Part shown: piece by piece, positions 34,499-46,332 of the stretch
Numbering within the stretch: position 1 is the first letter of the stretch
Layout: each line of letters opens with the position of its first letter
IMG/VR virus record: IMGVR_UViG_3300028376_000003
Location: 77,528 to 141,527 of that record
Origin: a virus
Direction: 5' to 3' (one strand)
DNA length: 64,000 nt
Notes under the pieces: model-generated
Seen by the model: only the letters and a program-made list of their open reading frames with translations
Databases searched by the model: none
Told to the model about the DNA's origin: nothing
Position numbers and translations under genes: made by a program

Positions 34499-36640
34499 AT
34501 GAATAAAAATCAAATTATGCAAAAAGACAAAGAAGGGAAAGATTACTTAAGAAAAACTATCGATGTGAAAAACTCTATTGCAGATGATGGACCACCAGAT
34601 GAAGATTTTAAAGTCCCTGACAAGAAGAATGGTAAATCTAAGACTCCTGTCCTTGATACATATAGTAGAGATCTTACTAATATGGCAGAAGATGGTAAGC
34701 TAGATCTTATTGTTGGTAGAGATAAAGAAATAGAACGTGTTTCTCAAATTTTATCTAGGAGAAAAAAGAACAATCCTATTCTCATTGGTGAAGCTGGTGT
34801 TGGTAAATCTTCTATTGCAGAAGGTCTAGCACTTAGAATTGTACAGAGAAAGGTAAGTAGAGTTCTTTTTGATAAAAGAATTGTTATGTTAGACTTAGCA
34901 TCTATGGTAGCTGGTACTAAATATAGGGGTCAATTTGAAGAAAGAGTTAAGGCTCTTATGAGTGAAATAGAAGATGAACCAAATGTTATTCTTTTTATCG
35001 ATGAAATTCATACTATGGTTGGTGCTGGTGGAGCATCTGGTAGCCTAGATGCCTCCAATATGTTCAAACCAGCATTAGCACGTGGTGAAATTCAGATAAT
35101 TGGTGCAACAACATTAGACGAATACAGAAAGCATGTTGAGAAAGATGCTGCTTTGGAAAGAAGATTTCAAAAAGTAATCGTAGAACCTGCCACACCAGAG
35201 GAAACTTTACAAATCATAGGAAACATCAAAGATAAATATGAGAAGCATCATAATGTGGTTTACTCACAAGAGGCAATTGAATCTTGTGTTGATCTTACAG
35301 TCAGATATATGAGTGATAGATTCTTACCAGACAAAGCAATTGATGCATTAGATGAGGCAGGATCAAGAGTTCATATCTCAAATATAGTTGTTCCTAAAAG
35401 GATAACTGAAATCGAGAAAAAGATTGAGGATATTAAAGAAGAAAAGAAAAAAGTAATTAGGTCTCAAAAATATGAACAAGCTGCTAGACTTAGAGATGTT
35501 GAGAAAGAACTTGATGCCGAATTAGAATTGGCTAGAGATAAGTGGGAAGAAGATACTAAAAATAACCCACAAGTTGTGTCACAAGAAGATGTTGCACAAG
35601 TAGTATCTATGATAACTGGAGTTCCTGTTAGTAAGGTTGGGCAAAAAGAAAATTCTAAATTAGCCAAAATGTTTGATGTTATTTCAAATAACGTTGTTGG
35701 TCAAGACAAAGCAGTTAAAAAAGTAGTACAAGCTATACAGAGAGGTAGAGTTGGTATGAAAGATCCTAACAAGCCAATTTTCTCAGGAATACTAATTGGT
35801 AATAGTGGAGTTGGTAAAACTGAATTGGCTAAACAAATTGCTAAGTATATGTTTGACTCAGAGGATTCTATTATTCGTTTAGATATGTCTGAATACATGG
35901 AGAAAGTCTCCCTTACTAGAATCCAAGGTTCTGCACCTGGGTATGTTGGATATGAAGATAGTAATGTATTGGATAAGGTAAGGAGAAAGCCTTACTCTGT
36001 TATTCTTTTTGATGAAATTGAGAAAGCCCACCCTGATGTTGTCAATCTATTTTTACAAATGTTAGATGATGGAGTTGTAACAGATTCACATGGAAGAAAA
36101 GTATCTTTTAAGAATTGTGTTATTCTGATGACATCAAACGTTGGTACTAGAAAGGTTAAGAGTTTTGGAACTGGACTAGGCTTCTCAACAAAAACATCAG
36201 TTGAGAAAGAACACAATAAAGTTAAAGCTATTTTACAAAAGGAATTAAGTGTGGCTTTTCCACCAGAGTTTATCAATAGATTAGATGATATTATCTACTT
36301 CAAAGATTTGGACAGAGATGACATTATGAAGATTGTTGAACTTGAAATTACTAAGACACTTAAAAGAGGTTCTGATATTGGATATAATCTAATTGTAACA
36401 GATGAATTGAAGGAACACCTTCTAGATGTTGGTTATAACTTAGATAGTGGTGCTAGACCTCTTAAAAGAGCTTTACAGACTTGGATTGATGATTATGTAA
36501 CAGAGTTTATCATCCAAGAAAGTCCTAAAGAGGGTTCTACACTAACAATTAGCTATGATAAAGATTTGGATGAGTCAGTAGTTAGTCTTGGTAAGAAAAG
36601 AAAGAAGAGAGTTTCTAAGCCCAGGGACGAAGAAATTTAG
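34499..36640 (+). CDS. clpC: ClpC-type AAA+ unfoldase lacking the Clp_N domain
   Basis: Two Walker A motifs (GEAGVGKS, GNSGVGKT), UVR coil (QKYEQAARLRD), RFLPDKAID, GARPLKR. Confidence 0.92.
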   Translation: MNKNQIMQKDKEGKDYLRKTIDVKNSIADDGPPDEDFKVPDKKNGKSKTPVLDTYSRDLTNMAEDGKLDLIVGRDKEIERVSQILSRRKKNNPILIGEAGVGKSSIAEGLALRIVQRKVSRVLFDKRIVMLDLASMVAGTKYRGQFEERVKALMSEIEDEPNVILFIDEIHTMVGAGGASGSLDASNMFKPALARGEIQIIGATTLDEYRKHVEKDAALERRFQKVIVEPATPEETLQIIGNIKDKYEKHHNVVYSQEAIESCVDLTVRYMSDRFLPDKAIDALDEAGSRVHISNIVVPKRITEIEKKIEDIKEEKKKVIRSQKYEQAARLRDVEKELDAELELARDKWEEDTKNNPQVVSQEDVAQVVSMITGVPVSKVGQKENSKLAKMFDVISNNVVGQDKAVKKVVQAIQRGRVGMKDPNKPIFSGILIGNSGVGKTELAKQIAKYMFDSEDSIIRLDMSEYMEKVSLTRIQGSAPGYVGYEDSNVLDKVRRKPYSVILFDEIEKAHPDVVNLFLQMLDDGVVTDSHGRKVSFKNCVILMTSNVGTRKVKSFGTGLGFSTKTSVEKEHNKVKAILQKELSVAFPPEFINRLDDIIYFKDLDRDDIMKIVELEITKTLKRGSDIGYNLIVTDELKEHLLDVGYNLDSGARPLKRALQTWIDDYVTEFIIQESPKEGSTLTISYDKDLDESVVSLGKKRKKRVSKPRDEEI

Positions 36641-37563: not shown

Positions 37564-39513
37564 TTATTCATTGAATATATCATCACCAGAATCCCTAAAT
37601 CTAACATCATTTGGTCTGCTATTAGTATTGGGTGTATTAGCAGAACTAGACTTTTTAATTGGTCTGTTGTCATCACTAATAACTCTTCTAGTTACTATTG
37701 CAGTTTCCTTCTCTGGTTCAGTTACAACATCTTGTTCTACCCCACCATTTTCTATGTCATCATTTAATTCTCCAACATTGTTCATATCATCATATATTTT
37801 AAATAACCCAGTATAGACAACTGAAGTAGTTGATGAATTAGTACCAGTTATATAAAAAACGTTTATACCACTAGTAAATATTTGTTTTATTTGACTGAAT
37901 TTACCTTGTGTTATTTTAAATACAACTATACCATTTGCTAGGTCTACTTCACCAGATTCTATAAAAGGAGAGAATGATATTGATGTTTTGTCGTTCTTTA
38001 TGGTAAATAGAATTTCAGAATAACCTGTTAAATCTAGGTATTTTGGTTTTTCATTAGTACCAGAAGCTATTGTGAATGATATTACATTATCAAACGGATA
38101 TAAAAGTATTTGTATTTTACCAAATCCATAGAACCTACTTTCGTCCAATACTGAACTTTCTGATTTAGCCATTATATTAAACCTATCTACCAAAACAGGG
38201 AATGGTACTTTAACTTGTTCTACAATAACGCCACCATTGCCACCATTATTACTATTGTTATTATTTGAATTTAATTCATCTAGTGTTATTCTAGGTCTAA
38301 TAGGTGATTTAGGAGTGTTGTTTATTGGTATAACACCAAAAGAGTTAGCAACTCCAACTAAATCTGGATTTATTGAAGATTTTATATTATACACCTTTGG
38401 CTTGGATGCATTAGCTATATTTATTTTAGTCATTCTAAGAGAATACTTAGATACCTCATCTTGTAACATACCATATGATGCCCTTCTTATTATATAAGAC
38501 TGGTCAACAGAGTCTATAAGTCTAAGTTCTACATCTATAATAGCAGTTGTAGTTGAGTACTTTATAATAGGTCTATATTCAACAGTCTCATTGAAGTTAT
38601 TAGTAAGTGTTATAGTAGTTGTTTTACCCCTTATATTTTGCTCATATATCGTTATATTGTATTGTACATAGTATCTGTTACCCAATGGTATTGCATCATC
38701 TATAAACCTTTTAAATTCAGCTATATTACCATTGTATGTTCCATAAATCTCAAAAAAGTCACCATTAGGCGAGTTTTCTATTTTAAGACCTAGTTTTTCA
38801 AATTCTGGTGTCTGTGGAATTGTTGTAGTAATTGCACTTTCTAATAAATATGTCTTTATTTGATTTATTCTCTGAGTTTTATTTATAAAATGAAAATCTA
38901 TAAATACTGGGGAATTTATATTTAGACCAAGACCATTAGTAAGAACAGAGTTAAGACTATTTTCAGTTGGTTCTTGATTTGTTAATTGTGTAGAAACCTC
39001 ACTTAAAGCTGGTATATCTAATACAATATTCTTACCCCAAAGTTTCTCTTGGAATAGAAGTGGTGGTGATGAAAAATTAAGTAAATACTGTTGTTCAACA
39101 TCTGTCATATCAAAATAGAAATTTGATAAATCATGTTGTGTTTGATTTAACCTATCAAATGCATATATTCTAACATAAAATCCTAAGTATTGTCCAAATG
39201 TCCAATTTATAGGTAAATGTATTTTAACTGTATCATGTCTTAGTGGTGAGGATGCAGTATAGTTTTTTTCTTGTAAAAATGTATAATTACTTTCATCTAC
39301 CTTACCCCATTTAGATTCTATTGGATCTAGTCTAAATAATTGATTTGTTTTTGTATTGCTAGTGGATGATGTACTTGTTGAAAAATATCCAGTTGTCCTA
39401 TCTTTTGAGTTAACCAATATGTTATATGGTTCACTCAGTAGGTTAGCATCATTATAAATATATTCTAATAATATATCTTTATTTAATTTTACAAATTTAG
39501 AGATTTTAGCCAT
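37564..39513 (-). CDS. 649-aa putative structural protein
   Basis: Long beta-rich ORF with late motif upstream. Confidence 0.55.
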   Translation of the reverse strand: MAKISKFVKLNKDILLEYIYNDANLLSEPYNILVNSKDRTTGYFSTSTSSTSNTKTNQLFRLDPIESKWGKVDESNYTFLQEKNYTASSPLRHDTVKIHLPINWTFGQYLGFYVRIYAFDRLNQTQHDLSNFYFDMTDVEQQYLLNFSSPPLLFQEKLWGKNIVLDIPALSEVSTQLTNQEPTENSLNSVLTNGLGLNINSPVFIDFHFINKTQRINQIKTYLLESAITTTIPQTPEFEKLGLKIENSPNGDFFEIYGTYNGNIAEFKRFIDDAIPLGNRYYVQYNITIYEQNIRGKTTTITLTNNFNETVEYRPIIKYSTTTAIIDVELRLIDSVDQSYIIRRASYGMLQDEVSKYSLRMTKINIANASKPKVYNIKSSINPDLVGVANSFGVIPINNTPKSPIRPRITLDELNSNNNNSNNGGNGGVIVEQVKVPFPVLVDRFNIMAKSESSVLDESRFYGFGKIQILLYPFDNVISFTIASGTNEKPKYLDLTGYSEILFTIKNDKTSISFSPFIESGEVDLANGIVVFKITQGKFSQIKQIFTSGINVFYITGTNSSTTSVVYTGLFKIYDDMNNVGELNDDIENGGVEQDVVTEPEKETAIVTRRVISDDNRPIKKSSSANTPNTNSRPNDVRFRDSGDDIFNE

Positions 39514-39630: not shown

Positions 39631-41880
39631 TTAAATAATCTTTTTAATTATCCCTAGCCTATAGTCGTAAGAGAAATTAATAGCTATATAGGGTGATTTA
39701 TCTAACCTAGCTTTTCTTCTAAGATCGTCTATTTTAATATTTTTATAATGTTTATTACTATTTATACCATAATTATATTTATACCCAGAAGTAGGTGATG
39801 ATATATTTTTTATTATTTTTATCATCTTACCTACCGAAATGGCGGTACCACCTTCATTAAAATCTTTATCAAAACTATCGTACATGCTCTTGGTGAATGG
39901 ACCAACCCATTTGCCTTTAACGTCCTGTACTATAAAAAATACTTCTGAACCGTTGCTTCTAAGTGGGTTAGAATTTGCCGACATATAACTTGGTGGTGTT
40001 GTGTTATAATGCTTGACTGGGTATATATTGTTACTCGAACTTTCATTACTTTGATGAAGACTGTCATCTATGTAATCTACTATTTCAGTATTATTTGTAA
40101 TATTAAAATCATTATAATGTACATATATCTCGTCAAGTGTTAAGGAACTACCACTCAATAATTTTAAATGATCAACCCAAAGTTTTCTTAAACTCTCATT
40201 ATATTTTATATCAACGACATAGCCATTTGATGTGGTGGGACAAGTGTCTATAATATTTATAGTAGCAGTTTTATTCCGACCCCATCTGTTACATCTTCCT
40301 ATCCGTTGTAATGTGGATTCTGGGGATAATGGTATCTCATATAGATTATTAAAAGATATATCAAGAGCCGCTTGTAAAATAAGTGTTGATATGTAAGGCT
40401 TTCTGTTAGTTGTTTTAGAATCCTTACCATAATCCTTTAATAATTTATCAAACATCTTTAATTTATCACCTTCTATGAAATTAGAGTGTATTAATATAGC
40501 ATCTGTTAACTCCTTTGCAATTTCTTGGGATTCTTTTATTGAGTTAACAAATAATATCTCATCGTTTGATATTGTACTAGGTATCTTATTTATAATATTA
40601 ACTTTATATTCTTTCTTATGTATAGAAGGTAAGTGGTTTTTTCCATTAGGTATAATCTTAGTTTTGTTTGAATTAGTAGTCCACAAATGGCTTATATCGA
40701 TGGGTGTAGCACTTAATAACAAAGTTCTAGAATCTGTCTTTATGTTTCTAACTCTCATAAGGTTTATAAAGAGGCTAAATATAGGTAAATCAGTTACATT
40801 TTCATGATACTCATCAAATATAACATCACTATGTATTATAAAATACATAAGAGACATGTCTTTACCAGCATTACTATATGGTCTTAGATAATAATCAATG
40901 TTTGTAATAATGATATCTGCTTCTTTTCCTTCTCCATTAAAGCTTGACTTTTGAACCTTCCCAGCATACCTTAGTTCTATATTTACTTTCTTTTCAGAGT
41001 CTTCTAATTCTTTTACAATAGAATAGTATGTTGATATTGCTATATTATTTCTAGGACATACCCACAATAACTTTTTATCTGACTTCTCACTCCACATAAG
41101 ACCTAACATAGTTTTACCAAATCCTGTAGGTGCTTTAATTATTGTAGTTTTATCCTCATCCTTAATATCATTTATAATCTTTTTTTGCTCTTTGAATCTT
41201 TTGTCGTCAGGGAAGTGACAAACTTCAAATAAGAACTTGTTTGCTTTTTTAAGATTTATATCATCAGCACCAGATATAGTTCTATCAGAATAAACTAATA
41301 TCATTCTAATTAATGTTATATCTCGGTTGAGGTTGTCTGTTTTTTCTTTCCTATCTTTGTTAAATAAAAAGTAATCAGGTCTAGTATTGTTATTTTTTTT
41401 AGGATTATTAATGATATACTTACTGTCAATTAGTTTACCAAGCTCTTTCTTCATGGTATCTATATCACTAGATGGTATACTACCTAAAACATCTTTGGCA
41501 CAAATCCCCTCATTGTCCAAGATACCATGATGCCAATATATTAGATTGGGTATTATGTTTTTACCAACACAATTCTTTATTTCGTTGTCTTTGAAATAAT
41601 TTACATAATCGAAATAAGTATCTACAAAAGCCCATGAAACTTGTTGATGTAAGTACTTGTTTTTATGTTTCTTATCTACTTTCTCTCCATTTATATGTTT
41701 TTGGAAAGAGTCTGTTGACTTCCCAATATCGTGTAATAGAGAAGCTACCTTTATGTTTACCATTAAGTGTTCTTTCACATTTGGTAATTTTTTTAATTCT
41801 TTCACAGCCTTATCACTGACTTCCTTTGAATGTTCCTCTAATGATATATTATTACCATTATTCGACTTTGCTACTATCAT
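39631..41880 (-). CDS. cas3: Cas3 HD nuclease-helicase
   Basis: LEEHS, LLHDIGK, HHG, APTGFGKT, DEYH, SAT, QRIGRCNR; adjacent to the array. Confidence 0.95.
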   Translation of the reverse strand: MIVAKSNNGNNISLEEHSKEVSDKAVKELKKLPNVKEHLMVNIKVASLLHDIGKSTDSFQKHINGEKVDKKHKNKYLHQQVSWAFVDTYFDYVNYFKDNEIKNCVGKNIIPNLIYWHHGILDNEGICAKDVLGSIPSSDIDTMKKELGKLIDSKYIINNPKKNNNTRPDYFLFNKDRKEKTDNLNRDITLIRMILVYSDRTISGADDINLKKANKFLFEVCHFPDDKRFKEQKKIINDIKDEDKTTIIKAPTGFGKTMLGLMWSEKSDKKLLWVCPRNNIAISTYYSIVKELEDSEKKVNIELRYAGKVQKSSFNGEGKEADIIITNIDYYLRPYSNAGKDMSLMYFIIHSDVIFDEYHENVTDLPIFSLFINLMRVRNIKTDSRTLLLSATPIDISHLWTTNSNKTKIIPNGKNHLPSIHKKEYKVNIINKIPSTISNDEILFVNSIKESQEIAKELTDAILIHSNFIEGDKLKMFDKLLKDYGKDSKTTNRKPYISTLILQAALDISFNNLYEIPLSPESTLQRIGRCNRWGRNKTATINIIDTCPTTSNGYVVDIKYNESLRKLWVDHLKLLSGSSLTLDEIYVHYNDFNITNNTEIVDYIDDSLHQSNESSSNNIYPVKHYNTTPPSYMSANSNPLRSNGSEVFFIVQDVKGKWVGPFTKSMYDSFDKDFNEGGTAISVGKMIKIIKNISSPTSGYKYNYGINSNKHYKNIKIDDLRRKARLDKSPYIAINFSYDYRLGIIKKII

Positions 41881-41933
41881 ATTAATATTTTAGACTGCGA
41901 ATATACTAATAAAAAAAACAATTGCTATATATA

Positions 41934-43473
41934 TTTATGATTACCTTATGTATTAATATGATTACTACTAATAATTAGCTTCGATTGTTGCGAAGGTCGG
42001 TTTTGATTACCTTATGTATTAATATGGTTACTATCTCCAAAAAGGGGTGTTAAGTCTACTTCGTAGTTGTGATTACCTTACGTATTAATATGATTACTAT
42101 CTACATAACTTTTACTCCTGGGAGAAGAGTAGTTGTGATTACCTTGCGTATTAATATGATTACTATCATCACGTTTACAATGATTAAAGGGGTGATGGTT
42201 GTGATTACCTTGCGTATTAATACGATTAGTACAAACCGCTAGCATTCATGTTGTGATTACCTTGTGTATTAATATGATTATTATCTCCTTTAACTGAAAA
42301 TTAGACCATTTCATGTTGTGATTACCTTGCGTATTAATATGATTAATATTTCATATTCAGACAGTTTAAACGTGTATTTAGTTGTGATTACCTTATGTAT
42401 TAATATGATTACTATCTAAAGTAGGAGGCAGAACATCATCTATATTGTTGTGATTACCTTACGTGTTAATATGATTACTATCATGCTACCATGCTTTATA
42501 AAATAATTACCAGTTGAGATTACCTTACGTATTAATATGATTACTATCTTAAAATCAAAACAGCCAATATAGACGAGTGTTGTGATTACCCTATGTATTA
42601 ATATGATTACTATTTTTTGTATAATCCTAGCCATAATGGCGTTGTTGTGATTACCTTATGTATTAATATGATTATTATCACTTTTCAAAAAGAGTCCTAT
42701 TAAGTATTTGTTGTGATTACCTTGCGTATTAATATGATTACTATCAAAAATAACACTAAGATATTCAGGTTCTATGTTATGATTACCTTACGTATTAATA
42801 TGATCACTATCTAAGCCTTTTGGTAGATATTTGTGTTAAGGTTGTGATTACCCTATGTATTAATATGATTTCTATATAGTGCTATTAAAGCATATGTCAA
42901 TAAAGTGTTGTAATTACTACATTTAATTATTTAGTGGTTTGTTTTAAAATGTCAAAGAACTATTTTTATCTATGTAGATAATTACCTTACGTATTAATAT
43001 GATTACTATCAAAGAATGATGAAGCTACTTATTAAGCTACCGTTGTGATTACCTTACGTATTAATATGATTACTATCTAGGAGGTCTTTTGCTACAAATT
43101 TTTATGGGTTGTGATTACCTTGCGTATTAATATGATTACTATCATAATCGAGTTGTTGGAACTTTGATTTGTGGTTGTGATTACCTTGTGTATTAATATG
43201 ATTACTATCTTGCAAGATTTTCTAGCTTGCGTTGTAAGTGTTGTGATTACCTTGCGTATTAATATGATTACTATCATGCTGTAATTAAGATGATGGTAGG
43301 TCCATGTTGTGATTACCTTGCGTATTAATATGATTACTATCTATCACGTACCAATTCATTTTTACCCTTATGTTGTGATTACCTTGCGTATTAATATGAT
43401 TACTATCAGAAAATTTATCCAAAGGAATACTTATCCCGTTGTGATTACCTTGCGTATTAATATGATTACTATC
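41934..43473 (-). CRISPR. CRISPR array: 23 repeats (one interrupted), 22 spacers mostly 29-31 nt
   Basis: 36-nt repeat GTTGTGATTACCTTGCGTATTAATATGATTACTATC (+ strand) at ~66-nt period; conserved at the cas6 end, degenerate at the cas3 end. Strand inferred from the operon. Confidence 0.97.
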
Positions 43474-43476
43474 CTA

Positions 43477-43511
43477 ACTTATATATCTAGCTGAAAGCTA
43501 GATATATAAGT
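43477..43511. repeat. Perfect 15-bp inverted repeat between cas6 and the array
   Basis: ACTTATATATCTAGC-TGAAA-GCTAGATATATAAGT. Confidence 0.8.
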
Positions 43512-43533
43512 GTCATTTAGGATATAAAAACTA

Positions 43534-44238
43534 CTAAAATAGCTCTTCTTTTGGATGGTATTTGCTAATATTATCAGTTCTAATTAGAGTCCCAAACCCC
43601 GAACCAGTGCTATTACCCAATCCATAATTATATATATGTTCAATAAGACTTCTATCACCATATATAGTGAGTGGACAATAGCTAGATTTGTTTCTGATGT
43701 TATTTACATAAACATTTATAGTTCTGTTTGATTTGTTATTATGACCAATTTCAATTTTGAAGTCTTTGAAACTTAATCCTTTATTTATCTTAGAAAACTT
43801 GGATCTAGTTTGTTCTTCTAAAGCTTTTTCAAATCCACTATCTTTTAATGTTAAAAATCCTAATTTTGTCTTTAGAAGAATACCATTCCTAAGTGTTTTA
43901 AAATGATTATATCCACTATAAAAATTTCCAGATATGTAATCAATACCATTTACTTTCATACCCTTTCCTAGATTACCATCTAAATGTAATCCATTTATGA
44001 CTTTACCGATAAAATCTTCTTTCAACGAACTCACAACAATAAAGCCACCATTTGGAAAATTTACATCTCGTCCACCATTTATAAACACACCACCTTCTAG
44101 GTTTGATATTGTATAATCTGATACAGAGTTATGATATTTGTTGTTCTTGCCTAGACATTTATGTATAAATCCATTTACTATTTTCTGATTATTAATTAAT
44201 GGTTCAGTGTTTGGAGTAAAACTAATTTTAATTCTCAT
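43534..44238 (-). CDS. cas6: Cas6 endoribonuclease
   Basis: C-terminal G-loop GLGNSTGSGFG; next to the array. Confidence 0.9.
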   Translation of the reverse strand: MRIKISFTPNTEPLINNQKIVNGFIHKCLGKNNKYHNSVSDYTISNLEGGVFINGGRDVNFPNGGFIVVSSLKEDFIGKVINGLHLDGNLGKGMKVNGIDYISGNFYSGYNHFKTLRNGILLKTKLGFLTLKDSGFEKALEEQTRSKFSKINKGLSFKDFKIEIGHNNKSNRTINVYVNNIRNKSSYCPLTIYGDRSLIEHIYNYGLGNSTGSGFGTLIRTDNISKYHPKEELF

Positions 44239-44248
44239 GTTTTATGTT

Positions 44249-45118
44249 TTAATGGTTAATAATTTGATTTGATATATCAGATACTTTTTTGTATTTATCA
44301 AACTCTCTGCTACTTATATCTTCTTCATCAATGATGCCATCAATAAATACAATACCACCATCTAATATAGTTGAAAATGGCTTCATCACACTCTCCCTTT
44401 CTCGTAAAAAGTCATTTACTGGTATTAATATTTCACCATTGTATATTTCAAACTTCTCAATACCACTATTTACCAATATAGGACTTCCATCTTGTATTGA
44501 TGAAGTTACAGTATTTTTACCAGTCTGGATAGTTCTAACCAATGCTGTTTTACCAAGTCTAGAAATAGCTACAAAAACAGCTTTGACTTTTGTGTCATCT
44601 TTTATATTTCTTATCTCTGACTCTATGTCTTTGTAGTTATATTCTAGAATGTTCTTTTTAAGTATTTTTGAAAACTCCTTTACAAAATACCCCCAGGCTA
44701 GACCTTTATTATAAGTCATATATTTTCTAACTAGTTCCCAATTCAATTTAATTGATGGATTAAATGAATTGTAGAAAGCTTTCTTAGTTGATATAGTCTC
44801 TAGATACTTATTGACCTTATTGTTTTTAAAAACAGGTTTAAACACAGTTTCTACACGAATAAGTGAATTTGACACCAAGTCATCAATTTCACTTATTCTC
44901 TTATAAAAGACTTTTCTATGAAGAGGAACAGGTCTCTCACCTAGAAGTACATGAATTGAATTAGACAATTGATGATGTGTTATTGGCTCTACATAAGAAA
45001 ATAAGTTATTTCTATTAACTCTATGAACTTTAGGCCCAGAATATATAGACTTGTCTTTAGTGCCTTTATTATACCTAAATAATTTGGCATCTTTGAATAT
45101 TAGTTTAAGATATTCCAT
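44249..45118 (-). CDS. Cas5-like subunit (possibly Cas5fv-like)
   Basis: Position between cas7 and cas6; basic; EPIT..QLSNSIHVLLGERP occupies the usual Cas5 N-terminal motif position. Confidence 0.6.
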   Translation of the reverse strand: MEYLKLIFKDAKLFRYNKGTKDKSIYSGPKVHRVNRNNLFSYVEPITHHQLSNSIHVLLGERPVPLHRKVFYKRISEIDDLVSNSLIRVETVFKPVFKNNKVNKYLETISTKKAFYNSFNPSIKLNWELVRKYMTYNKGLAWGYFVKEFSKILKKNILEYNYKDIESEIRNIKDDTKVKAVFVAISRLGKTALVRTIQTGKNTVTSSIQDGSPILVNSGIEKFEIYNGEILIPVNDFLRERESVMKPFSTILDGGIVFIDGIIDEEDISSREFDKYKKVSDISNQIINH

Positions 45119-45127
45119 AAATTATTT

Positions 45128-46213
45128 TTATTTCTTTTTAGACTTTAATGCTTTCTCTTCAGCCGCCTCTTTGATTATAGCCTTTTCTTTTTCGATACCT
45201 TTATTAATTCTTTCTTCTGTTTTTTCAACTATATGACCACTAACTTCCTCATAAAAATCAAAGGGTTTAAACGAGATATTTTTAATATCTTTCATATTTT
45301 TTATATCATCCCAACCTTCTGGATTTCTCATAGTATCTACATAAGGATCTCTTACTAGCTTTATTCTAACGCTAATTACATCAGCACTAGCATTACTTCT
45401 TTTTATTTGTGTTTTTAACAAACGGTATATATATTCTTTTACCAAATATACAACATTATCATCATTCAGCTTAATACCATATTCTGCAAGATCTAGACAT
45501 GATGTTGATAATTTGTAATATGCCAACTTTGTATCAGTGCTATTAAGATTCATATTCAAAGACTTTATCAATATCTCAGCATTATCTGGATTAAATCCAT
45601 ATCTATCGAAAGCTGCATCACAAGATAAAAATTGTAATTGTCCAATGTCTATAAAGGAAGTACCACTATATTTTATATCTCCTAAAGACTCATATTGAAA
45701 CAAGCTTGTACTACCCTTTCCAGAGATTGGAGACTTTTTACTACCTGCTTTAACTGCTTGTGGTAAAGTAGGTAGTGCAGTACATGTCTGTTGGATATTG
45801 CCTGTGGTTATTGGACCTTTTCTTTTTAAACTTTCACCCTTTGTTGCTTTCAAATAACCCTTTAGGATTGCATGTGTAGATCCTAGGTAGTTATAAAGAG
45901 TATTCTTATCATATAAAGCTCTTGGGTTATCTTCTACGTAATCTTCTTTAAACAGTGCCTTGTTAAAACATTCTGCTGATATCTTAACCTTAAAATCTAA
46001 CTGACCTTTCTCGTTATAGAAGAAATTCTTTTTAGAATAGTTACAATTATCGTTAATCTGTGCCAATGCTTTTACTTTTGGCATTCTATCATCATCTTTT
46101 TTATTAGCATCTTTGAAGAACATGAACTTCTGATCTGTTGAATCAAAGTTTACAATACCACTTCCTTCTAATTTAAAGTCTACTAGAATACCACTTACTG
46201 GTGAATTACTCAT
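45128..46213 (-). CDS. cas7: Cas7fv-like backbone subunit
   Basis: Motifs G.GIVN, IS..C...LF, KGY, KR..P, STS.F....GD..Y, QLQF.S.D..FDR, GI.LNDD.V..LV match type I-F2 Cas7fv as recalled. Confidence 0.8.
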   Translation of the reverse strand: MSNSPVSGILVDFKLEGSGIVNFDSTDQKFMFFKDANKKDDDRMPKVKALAQINDNCNYSKKNFFYNEKGQLDFKVKISAECFNKALFKEDYVEDNPRALYDKNTLYNYLGSTHAILKGYLKATKGESLKRKGPITTGNIQQTCTALPTLPQAVKAGSKKSPISGKGSTSLFQYESLGDIKYSGTSFIDIGQLQFLSCDAAFDRYGFNPDNAEILIKSLNMNLNSTDTKLAYYKLSTSCLDLAEYGIKLNDDNVVYLVKEYIYRLLKTQIKRSNASADVISVRIKLVRDPYVDTMRNPEGWDDIKNMKDIKNISFKPFDFYEEVSGHIVEKTEERINKGIEKEKAIIKEAAEEKALKSKKK

Positions 46214-46332
46214 AATTTATGTTTTAAGTTTATATTATTTTGACAAATATACAAAACATATTCTATTAAAATGTAGTTTTTTACTTTTATTATGAGATAA
46301 TACAGTAATCGATTATTTTACATAGTCAGAAT

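Follow-up and report, generated by a model that had tools for sequence, protein, structure and literature searches.

A mosaic, I-F2-related CRISPR-Cas locus of giant phages as a probable interference module without Cas8 or Cas11

Can a type I CRISPR-Cas locus in which no Cas8, Cas1 or Cas2 gene is seen be a complete interference system, and does it belong to a subtype already described? The question is raised by a compact locus in a 64,000-nucleotide stretch of viral DNA (the window), bases 77528-141527 of the 141.5-kb IMG/VR virus record IMGVR_UViG_3300028376_000003, in which cas7, a cas5-like gene, cas6, CRISPR repeats and cas3 follow one another on the minus strand. Our answer, to which we give a probability of about 0.78, is that the locus provides a giant phage of Bacteroidota with a functional type I interference module that has neither Cas8 nor Cas11, is derived from type I-F2, is mosaic in composition and most likely depends on the host for adaptation. 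A preliminary description of this DNA had proposed the gene calls and their order, a Cas7fv-like protein, a Cas6 with a G-loop, a stand-alone Cas3 with intact HD and helicase motifs, and no adaptation genes in the window. All parts were found where it had placed them and these assignments hold, while its account of the array and the promoter stands in part, as set out below.

Cas7 (361 residues; 45128-46213, minus strand) is, by sequence and fold comparison, specifically the backbone subunit of type I-F2 (I-Fv). It matches the NCBIfam Cas7fv model with E 1e-24 and 87 bits, below the 200-bit cut-off of that model, and we regard it as homologous to Cas7fv, yet outside the curated equivalog. PADLOC models of Cas7fv (9e-20) and Cas7f also match, and a sequence search of the whole PDB finds two I-F2 Cas7 chains, 9g44_F and 5o6u_C (E 3e-13), and no others. 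With an AlphaFold2 (AF2) model of predicted local distance difference test (pLDDT) 91, the best Foldseek matches are I-Fv/I-F2 Cas7 chains (E 1e-16 to 1e-14, template modelling (TM) score 0.59-0.75), the next families (I-A, I-E, I-B and I-C) following from E 1e-8, and in hhalign a profile of 43 sequences aligns with an annotated Cas7fv from Acinetobacter (probability 99.8%, E 2e-28, identity 25%). The protein is about 40 residues longer than canonical I-F2 Cas7, residues 326-360 being a Lys-rich C-terminal helix absent from canonical Cas7fv and specific to the lineage; matches to most relatives extend through it.

Cas3 (749 residues; 39631-41880, minus strand) is a stand-alone HD nuclease and superfamily 2 (SF2) helicase. 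It retains intact HD motifs, a Walker A (APTGFGKT), DEYHE, SAT and QRIGRCNR, all of which are conserved among its relatives, and it matches TIGR01596 (HD, 2.6e-12) and cas3_core (6.8e-22). Judged by its matches the helicase is specifically I-F2 (I-Fv)-like: PADLOC Cas3fv scores 6e-47, the sole strong PDB match is the I-F2 Cas2-3 protein 9g44_A (E 9e-32), and the closest plasmid genes lie in Acinetobacter I-Fv loci (26% identity). The HD region scores in part with PADLOC I-B models. The roughly 150 N-terminal residues that carry Cas2 in the canonical I-F2 protein are lacking, and no Cas2 match was found in the six frames of the 141.5-kb record.

The third protein (289 residues; 44249-45118, minus strand) has no match in Pfam, NCBIfam, PADLOC or PHROGs and 70 unnamed homologues. 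Its AF2 model (pLDDT 80) has the repeat-associated mysterious protein (RAMP) fold, interrupted at about residues 127-199 by a helical insertion, and in the fold search it is nearest Cas5fv (5o6u_F, Z 7.5; 9g44_B, Z 6.5), only slightly above other Cas5 proteins, Cas5a and Cas5e coming next at Z 5.2; nearly all remaining rows are Cas5-like RAMP proteins. A family profile searched against PDB sequences returned only spurious mL64 matches, and an ESM Atlas search gave noise or nothing. The gene stands between cas7 and cas6 in 17 of the 18 distinct loci introduced below. There is no sequence-profile signal to Cas5fv, and the name Cas5 is used here on the grounds of the predicted fold and of a constant position between cas7 and cas6, with no claim of orthology to Cas5fv.

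Cas6 (234 residues; 43534-44238, minus strand) is by its profile matches a Cas6b-like endoribonuclease and not Cas6f: PADLOC Cas6b scores 1e-36, TIGR01877 5.5e-14 and Pfam Cas6_C 1.6e-11, and BLASTP finds no similarity to Cas6f. It has the G-loop GLGNSTGSGFG, and the His of IHKCLG is conserved; the catalytic motifs of Cas3 and Cas6 are kept across proteins only 30-43% identical. The distant phage relatives L110, L112 and L115 keep the Cas3, Cas7 and Cas5 genes, as does the distant giant-phage relative L114; in the first three Cas6 is a Cas6e-like or type IV-like protein of 172-184 residues, and L112, L114 and L115 have shorter hairpin repeats that end in ATTGAAAC, ATTGAAAG or GTTGAAAG (in L112 and L115, ATTGAAAC or GTTGAAAG). 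Cas6 and repeats have therefore been exchanged as a module within the lineage, for which 'mosaic' is an apt word. Type I-B was considered for the locus and rejected: there is no Cas8b, Cas7 matches Cas7fv and Cas7f models only, and nothing beyond Cas6 and part of the Cas3 HD region scores as I-B.

Far from standing alone, the locus belongs to a lineage of giant phages with many members. Among representatives of clusters at 50% identity, 430 Cas7 relatives reach E ≤ 0.001 and 120 reach E ≤ 1e-30, with lengths of 340-390 residues in most matches listed. In IMG/VR there are 30 such loci, of which about 18 are distinct; most lie on contigs of 124-597 kb, and local hidden Markov model (HMM) searches find the same four genes across them. 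The order is cas3-cas7-cas5-cas6-array in most loci, cas7-cas5-cas6-array-cas3 in the window and L104, and cas6-cas7-cas5-array-cas3 in L111, L113 and L116. All-against-all clustering of the flanking open reading frames (ORFs) of 18 loci recovers Cas7 and Cas3 at all 18, Cas5 at 17 and Cas6 at 15, and no fifth family common to them; among the genes neighbouring the window locus there is no Cas8 or Cas11 match. That only four families are shared argues against a hidden large subunit; none is conserved beside the four genes in these 18 loci. An ORF of 649 residues (37564-39513, minus strand) lies directly after cas3; it has no match in Pfam, NCBIfam, PADLOC, PHROGs or ESM Atlas. It was considered as a large subunit in disguise and rejected, as no homologue stands beside any other locus.

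Adaptation genes are absent on a wider scale than the window. Neither Cas1, Cas2 nor Cas4 has a match anywhere in the 141.5-kb record; since that record is only about 20% complete (CheckV), the absence of Cas1 is better supported by relatives, for none of the 19 phage records searched contains it, and these include seven that are at least 90% complete, three of them with terminal repeats. The Cas7 profile matched nothing in 400 other sampled Bacteroidia genomes, its one match being the contig of a metagenome-assembled genome (MAG) that brought in L015. Against GenBank phages the locus gave no match by megablast and the array only chance-level matches by blastn.

The repeats, which the preliminary description had taken for a single array between cas6 and cas3, do lie there (41934-43473, minus strand; 23 repeats of 36 nt with 30-nt spacers and a period of 66), and form two arrays, each, it appears, with a leader of its own. 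Leader 1 (43474-43533, minus strand) precedes array 1 (42975-43473, minus strand; 8 repeats, 7 spacers of 30-31 nt, last repeat degenerate), and strain-specific spacers are found at this end. A 98-nt insert (42877-42974, minus strand) then separates array 2 (41934-42876, minus strand; 15 repeats, 14 spacers), whose repeats carry many substitutions and whose distal repeats are degenerate. The insert looks like a second leader, as TTCTTTGACAT (42949-42959), unique in the window, recurs in the leaders of two related phage loci (L003/L094 and L010/L097); a boxA element was considered for it and rejected because TTCTTTGACAT is the leader motif of related loci. At 42198-42249 a deletion has cut one spacer back to 21 nt and removed the 5' part of the repeat that follows. 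In the window, within leader 1, and in four of five related loci examined (L003, L011, L012 and L015), the first repeat is preceded, 5-25 nt upstream, by a perfect or near-perfect hairpin, which might act as a terminator behind cas6 or belong to the leader.

Repeat conservation is consistent with Cas6 processing. The repeat is 36 nt long in 14 lineages; read in the cas direction it ends in the nine bases AATCACAAC, changed once, in one lineage. Between columns 16-20 and 26-30 a 5-bp stem is paired in 84% of cells, compared with 77% in shuffles (none of 500 as high) and at most 61% in slid controls, and one stem pair has compensatory changes (CG 8, UA 3, AU 2, UG 1) and is never unpaired. The conserved end and the covariation fit Cas6 processing of a cas-sense transcript, and we infer transcription in the cas direction and a cut that would leave a handle of about 8 nt, AUCACAAC.

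Are these arrays still changing? Across the cas genes and flanking DNA, the window and the strains L001 and L002 show 99.2-99.5% identity. The window and L002 have 12 spacers in common in the same order, and their three leader-proximal spacers are all different; L001 begins with a spacer of its own, followed by spacer 3 of the window. Three strains with flanks about 99% identical and unique spacers at the leader end are what polarised gain would leave behind if spacers were added beside the cas6-proximal leader, which suggests that they are still being gained. We think it unlikely that the arrays are instead inherited relics, their strain differences owed entirely to deletion and recombination, and adaptation no longer taking place, whether in cis or in trans. 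Deletion would account for the internal spacer-block differences between the window and L002, which look like deletions, and the substitutions in array 2 and the near identity of the L004-L010 arrays in seven contigs are what relics would show, but such a history does not readily put the unique spacers exactly at the leader end, nor a newer spacer of L001 ahead of the spacer 3 that it has in common with the window, nor exact 30/30 protospacers in the same samples as the phage.

These protospacers indicate what the spacers are aimed at. Spacer 3 has matches on 61 Joint Genome Institute (JGI) metagenome contigs (L031-L091), most of them 30/30, at a site within a group II intron that has no ORF and is about 650 nt long (RF01999 and RF00029; for example L056:2115-2746), to which the spacer is antisense. 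Carriers come from many lake and marine metagenomes, the intron often lying at contig ends, and L079 has two copies 4 kb apart. Phage-like carriers include L088, in which tail-lysin genes flank the intron, and L053 and L031, which have strong PHROG matches; on L085 the intron has a tyrosine integrase gene and genes for type III restriction-modification beside it. The truncated spacer 18 matches L040 at 21/21 positions, about 1.2 kb from the intron site of that contig, and L053 at 19/21, and spacer 6 matches the L085 integrase gene at 26/30. For spacers 3, 4 and 10 there are contigs in which the spacer sequence runs into other DNA, from the same lake runs as the phage. No self-target was found, and related phage records yielded no targets beyond chance; exact searches found none for spacers 1, 2 and 10 in IMG/VR or for spacer 1 in JGI metagenomes, and spacer 4 in IMG/VR matched only the array of a sister strain. 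As part of the explanation favoured here, and with the confidence given to it as a whole, the targets are other mobile elements of the same host population, namely a mobile group II intron borne by phage-like and integrative contigs, together with further contigs of other kinds, and the system would thus serve competition between elements. The 5' flanks of five protospacers, in spacer sense, are CTG, TTG, TTG, TTGC and TTA; none is CC, and together they hint at a YTG-like protospacer-adjacent motif (PAM).

How, then, could a virus without cas1 acquire spacers? Six of 401 Bacteroidia genomes have arrays with 36-nt repeats, a period of 66 and the same AATCACAAC end. Four of these have a Cas1 match, in three of them as the immediate neighbour of the array, and at the two loci examined the cas genes are cas9, type II cas1 and cas2. 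In these II-C arrays the degenerate repeat is distal and repeat polarity relative to the leader is as in the phage; read in the sense of the Cas9 CRISPR RNA (crRNA) their repeats start with GTTGTGATT, as phage repeats do on the plus strand. Phage and Bacteroidia type II-C arrays therefore have repeat length, spacer length and a leader-distal GTTGTGATT end in common. A precedent is the VI-B array of Flavobacterium columnare, which has no cas1 or cas2 and gains spacers through the II-C Cas1 in trans, as judged by cas1 deletion (PMC8092290). The two F. columnare arrays have 36-bp repeats that agree only in a leader-distal GTTGT, new spacers are oriented with their PAM end towards the leader, and VI-B is read from the leader and II-C toward it (PMC8092290). 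The phage arrays have the same format, with 36-nt repeats, 30-nt spacers, the GTTGT end, no cas1 or cas2 of their own and turnover, and because of it new spacers are most likely inserted by a host type II-C Cas1-Cas2 in trans. A transcript driven from the leader would then put the PAM-proximal end of the spacer next to the 5' handle, as type I needs. A phage-encoded Cas9 as user of the arrays was considered and rejected, no Cas9 being found in five phage records.

It is possible, and we propose it tentatively as the less probable side of the matter, that giant phages rebuilt an I-F2 effector around arrays that imitate host Cas9 (II-C) arrays and so parasitise host adaptation. Host Cas1-Cas2 would load spacers with the PAM end facing the leader, and the phage would read the array from the leader, on the strand opposite to that of the Cas9 crRNAs. 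If true, this would be viral parasitism of adaptation across CRISPR classes and across genomes, and sister lineages in which the modules of Cas6 and repeats were swapped would be adjusted to different hosts.

We return to the question of subtype. Type I-F2, known from Shewanella putrefaciens CN-32 and Acinetobacter plasmids (PDB 5O6U, 5O7H and 9G44; PMC12956352, PMC4937334) and the smallest known type I system, consists of Cas6f2, Cas5f2, Cas7f2 and Cas2-3f2, with 27-bp repeats and a GG PAM (PMC12956352). The phage locus has the general equipment of type I, an HD and SF2 Cas3, Cascade genes for Cas7, Cas5 and Cas6, and an array. It is like I-F2 in having a Cas7f2/Cas7fv backbone, homologous in fold (TM up to 0.75), a homologous Cas3 helicase, no Cas8 or Cas11 among the four families conserved in 18 loci, and an association with mobile elements. 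The fold nearest to its Cas5-like protein is that of Cas5fv, which has a helical insertion, by a slight margin over other Cas5 proteins. Most phage relatives are arranged cas3-cas7-cas5-cas6-array, which can be set beside the canonical cas1-cas2/3-cas7fv-cas5fv-cas6f. It is not cleanly I-F2 because four defining features are missing: Cas6f, the Cas2-Cas3 fusion, an adjacent Cas1 and 27/28-nt repeats, in place of which the phage has a Cas6b-like enzyme, an unfused Cas3, no Cas1 and 36-nt repeats. Spacers are of 30 rather than 32 nt, with the putative AUCACAAC handle; a GG (CC) PAM is not seen either, as judged from only five protospacer flanks; Cas5 is unrelated in sequence; Cas7 has its extra C-terminal helix; and the locus is borne by giant phages and absent from the 400 other sampled Bacteroidia genomes.

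These differences bear directly on a distinctly improbable alternative, that the locus is canonical I-F2 (I-Fv) that lost cas1 in a phage and is thus already classified. The I-F2-like Cas7 and Cas3 helicase, the absence of Cas8 and a commonest gene order that equals the canonical one would all follow from such a loss; a Cas6b-like Cas6 with no similarity to Cas6f, a Cas3 without the Cas2 portion, repeats and spacers of 36 and 30 nt against 27/28 and 32, a Cas5 that no Cas5fv model or profile recognises, identities of 18-26% and a longer Cas7 with a conserved C-terminal helix would not. The suggestion of an unclassified variant made in the preliminary description is upheld to this extent: the locus represents a mosaic form of I-F2 that is new and is characteristic of a lineage of giant phages.

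The four-gene system is probably complete for interference. I-F2 functions without Cas8, Cas5 reading the PAM and Cas7 recruiting Cas3 (PMC12956352), and the phage module may work in the same way. Arrays would be transcribed from the cas6-proximal leaders, and the Cas6b-like enzyme would cut the 36-nt repeat at its short conserved hairpin, generating the 5' handle. Several Cas7 subunits, one Cas5-like subunit and Cas6 would assemble on the 30-nt guide; as in I-F2, the helical insertion of Cas5 would read the PAM and the Cas7 backbone would recruit the stand-alone HD-helicase Cas3, which would unwind and degrade the target DNA. That the module is incomplete and relies on host or distant phage genes, such as a large subunit or a host Cas9 using the repeats, or that it merely binds or represses, is highly unlikely: partial systems are frequent in giant phages (PMC7162821, PMC13037316), the plus-strand repeats begin GTTGTGATT like Bacteroidia Cas9 crRNA repeats and an ORF without recognised matches follows cas3, against which stand the intact and conserved Cas3 nuclease and helicase motifs, the function of I-F2 without Cas8 (PMC12956352), the lack of any fifth gene conserved in 18 loci or of homologues of that ORF at the others, and the repeat conservation and hairpin covariation that fit Cas6 processing of a cas-sense transcript.

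Several observations weigh against the explanation of the locus as a working, I-F2-derived and host-dependent module. Cas7 scores below its NCBIfam cut-off. Profile comparison of the Cas5-like protein with Cas5fv gives no sequence signal, and because there is no sequence-level link the part of Cas5 in PAM reading is argued from fold and position; the flanks that hint at a PAM are few and not uniform. The arrays of the L004-L010 lineage are almost static. No leader-repeat junction motif common to phage and host II-C leaders was seen, and the II-C comparison draws on sampled Bacteroidia genomes. The genome of the window is, as noted, about one-fifth complete, and the sequencing runs listed as containing the locus include no RNA run.

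Other systems share single traits with this one. Huge phages commonly have CRISPR loci without adaptation genes, some with host-like repeats (PMC7162821, PMC13037316). Those of Al-Shayeb et al. 2020 (PMC7162821) resemble the present locus in residence in giant phages, absence of Cas1, Cas2 and Cas4, an intact effector nuclease, spacers against other mobile elements and repeats resembling host arrays; they differ in being class 2 systems and an I-C variant without Cas6 and with another helicase. The F. columnare VI-B system (PMC8092290) is alike in its lack of adaptation genes, 36-nt repeats, 30-nt spacers, GTTGT leader-distal end, transcription from the leader end opposite to II-C and PAM end facing the leader. 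Its effector, however, is the RNA-targeting Cas13b of a host chromosome, whereas here a phage-borne type I Cascade and Cas3 are encoded, and trans-adaptation, demonstrated there by deletion of cas1, is here a likely interpretation. The type I-F1 system of Vibrio phage ICP1 (PMC10161043) is also a phage-encoded member of the I-F family aimed at a host mobile element, but it has Cas8f (Csy1), Cas6f, a Cas2/3 fusion and Cas1. The 2025 CRISPR classification mentions only an I-F1/I-F2 intermediate (PMC12669027). In the literature searched, which did not cover the 2022 Cell survey of virus-encoded CRISPR, we found no I-F2-like Cas8-less lineage with Cas6b-like processing and nothing linking I-F2/I-Fv with jumbo or huge phages.

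If borne out, the lineage would add to the Cas8-less type I effectors a second family, one that diversified independently. Its four genes total about 1,630 residues and it is abundant in nature (the 430 Cas7 clusters above), offering raw material for compact type I tools, and it would be useful for comparing how PAM reading and Cas3 recruitment proceed without a large subunit, Cas5 being unrelated in sequence to Cas5fv and the PAM apparently different. It would also be a case of a virus that keeps a current CRISPR memory without adaptation genes, in which one spacer against a promiscuous group II intron matches many mobile elements at once. Should the imitation of II-C arrays prove real, adaptation in trans would no longer be confined to one genome but would span host and virus, and CRISPR classes as well.

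The setting of the locus is that of a phage. Since the record is so incomplete, it is taken to be a fragment of a very large phage; G+C content is about 29%, and this DNA is present in 23 metagenome runs from lakes and salt lakes. About 30 nt upstream of the cas7 ATG, where the preliminary description had put a promoter (~46243-46251), the octamer TATATTTG is indeed present (46244-46251, minus strand); the promoter is a candidate by motif match, TATATTTG presumably fitting the Bacteroidota -7 promoter box. The window has 124 TAnnTTTG sites, and 33 of them are exactly this octamer, a frequency consistent with Bacteroidota-type promoters across the phage and hence with a Bacteroidota host. Neighbouring genes include phage replication functions, among them a gp32-like single-stranded DNA-binding protein (PF08804/phrog_224), a DNA polymerase exonuclease subunit and a Lon-like protease. 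The last, an ATP-dependent protease of 713 residues (34499-36640, plus strand; phrog_4871, E 4e-220), lies a few kb from the CRISPR locus.

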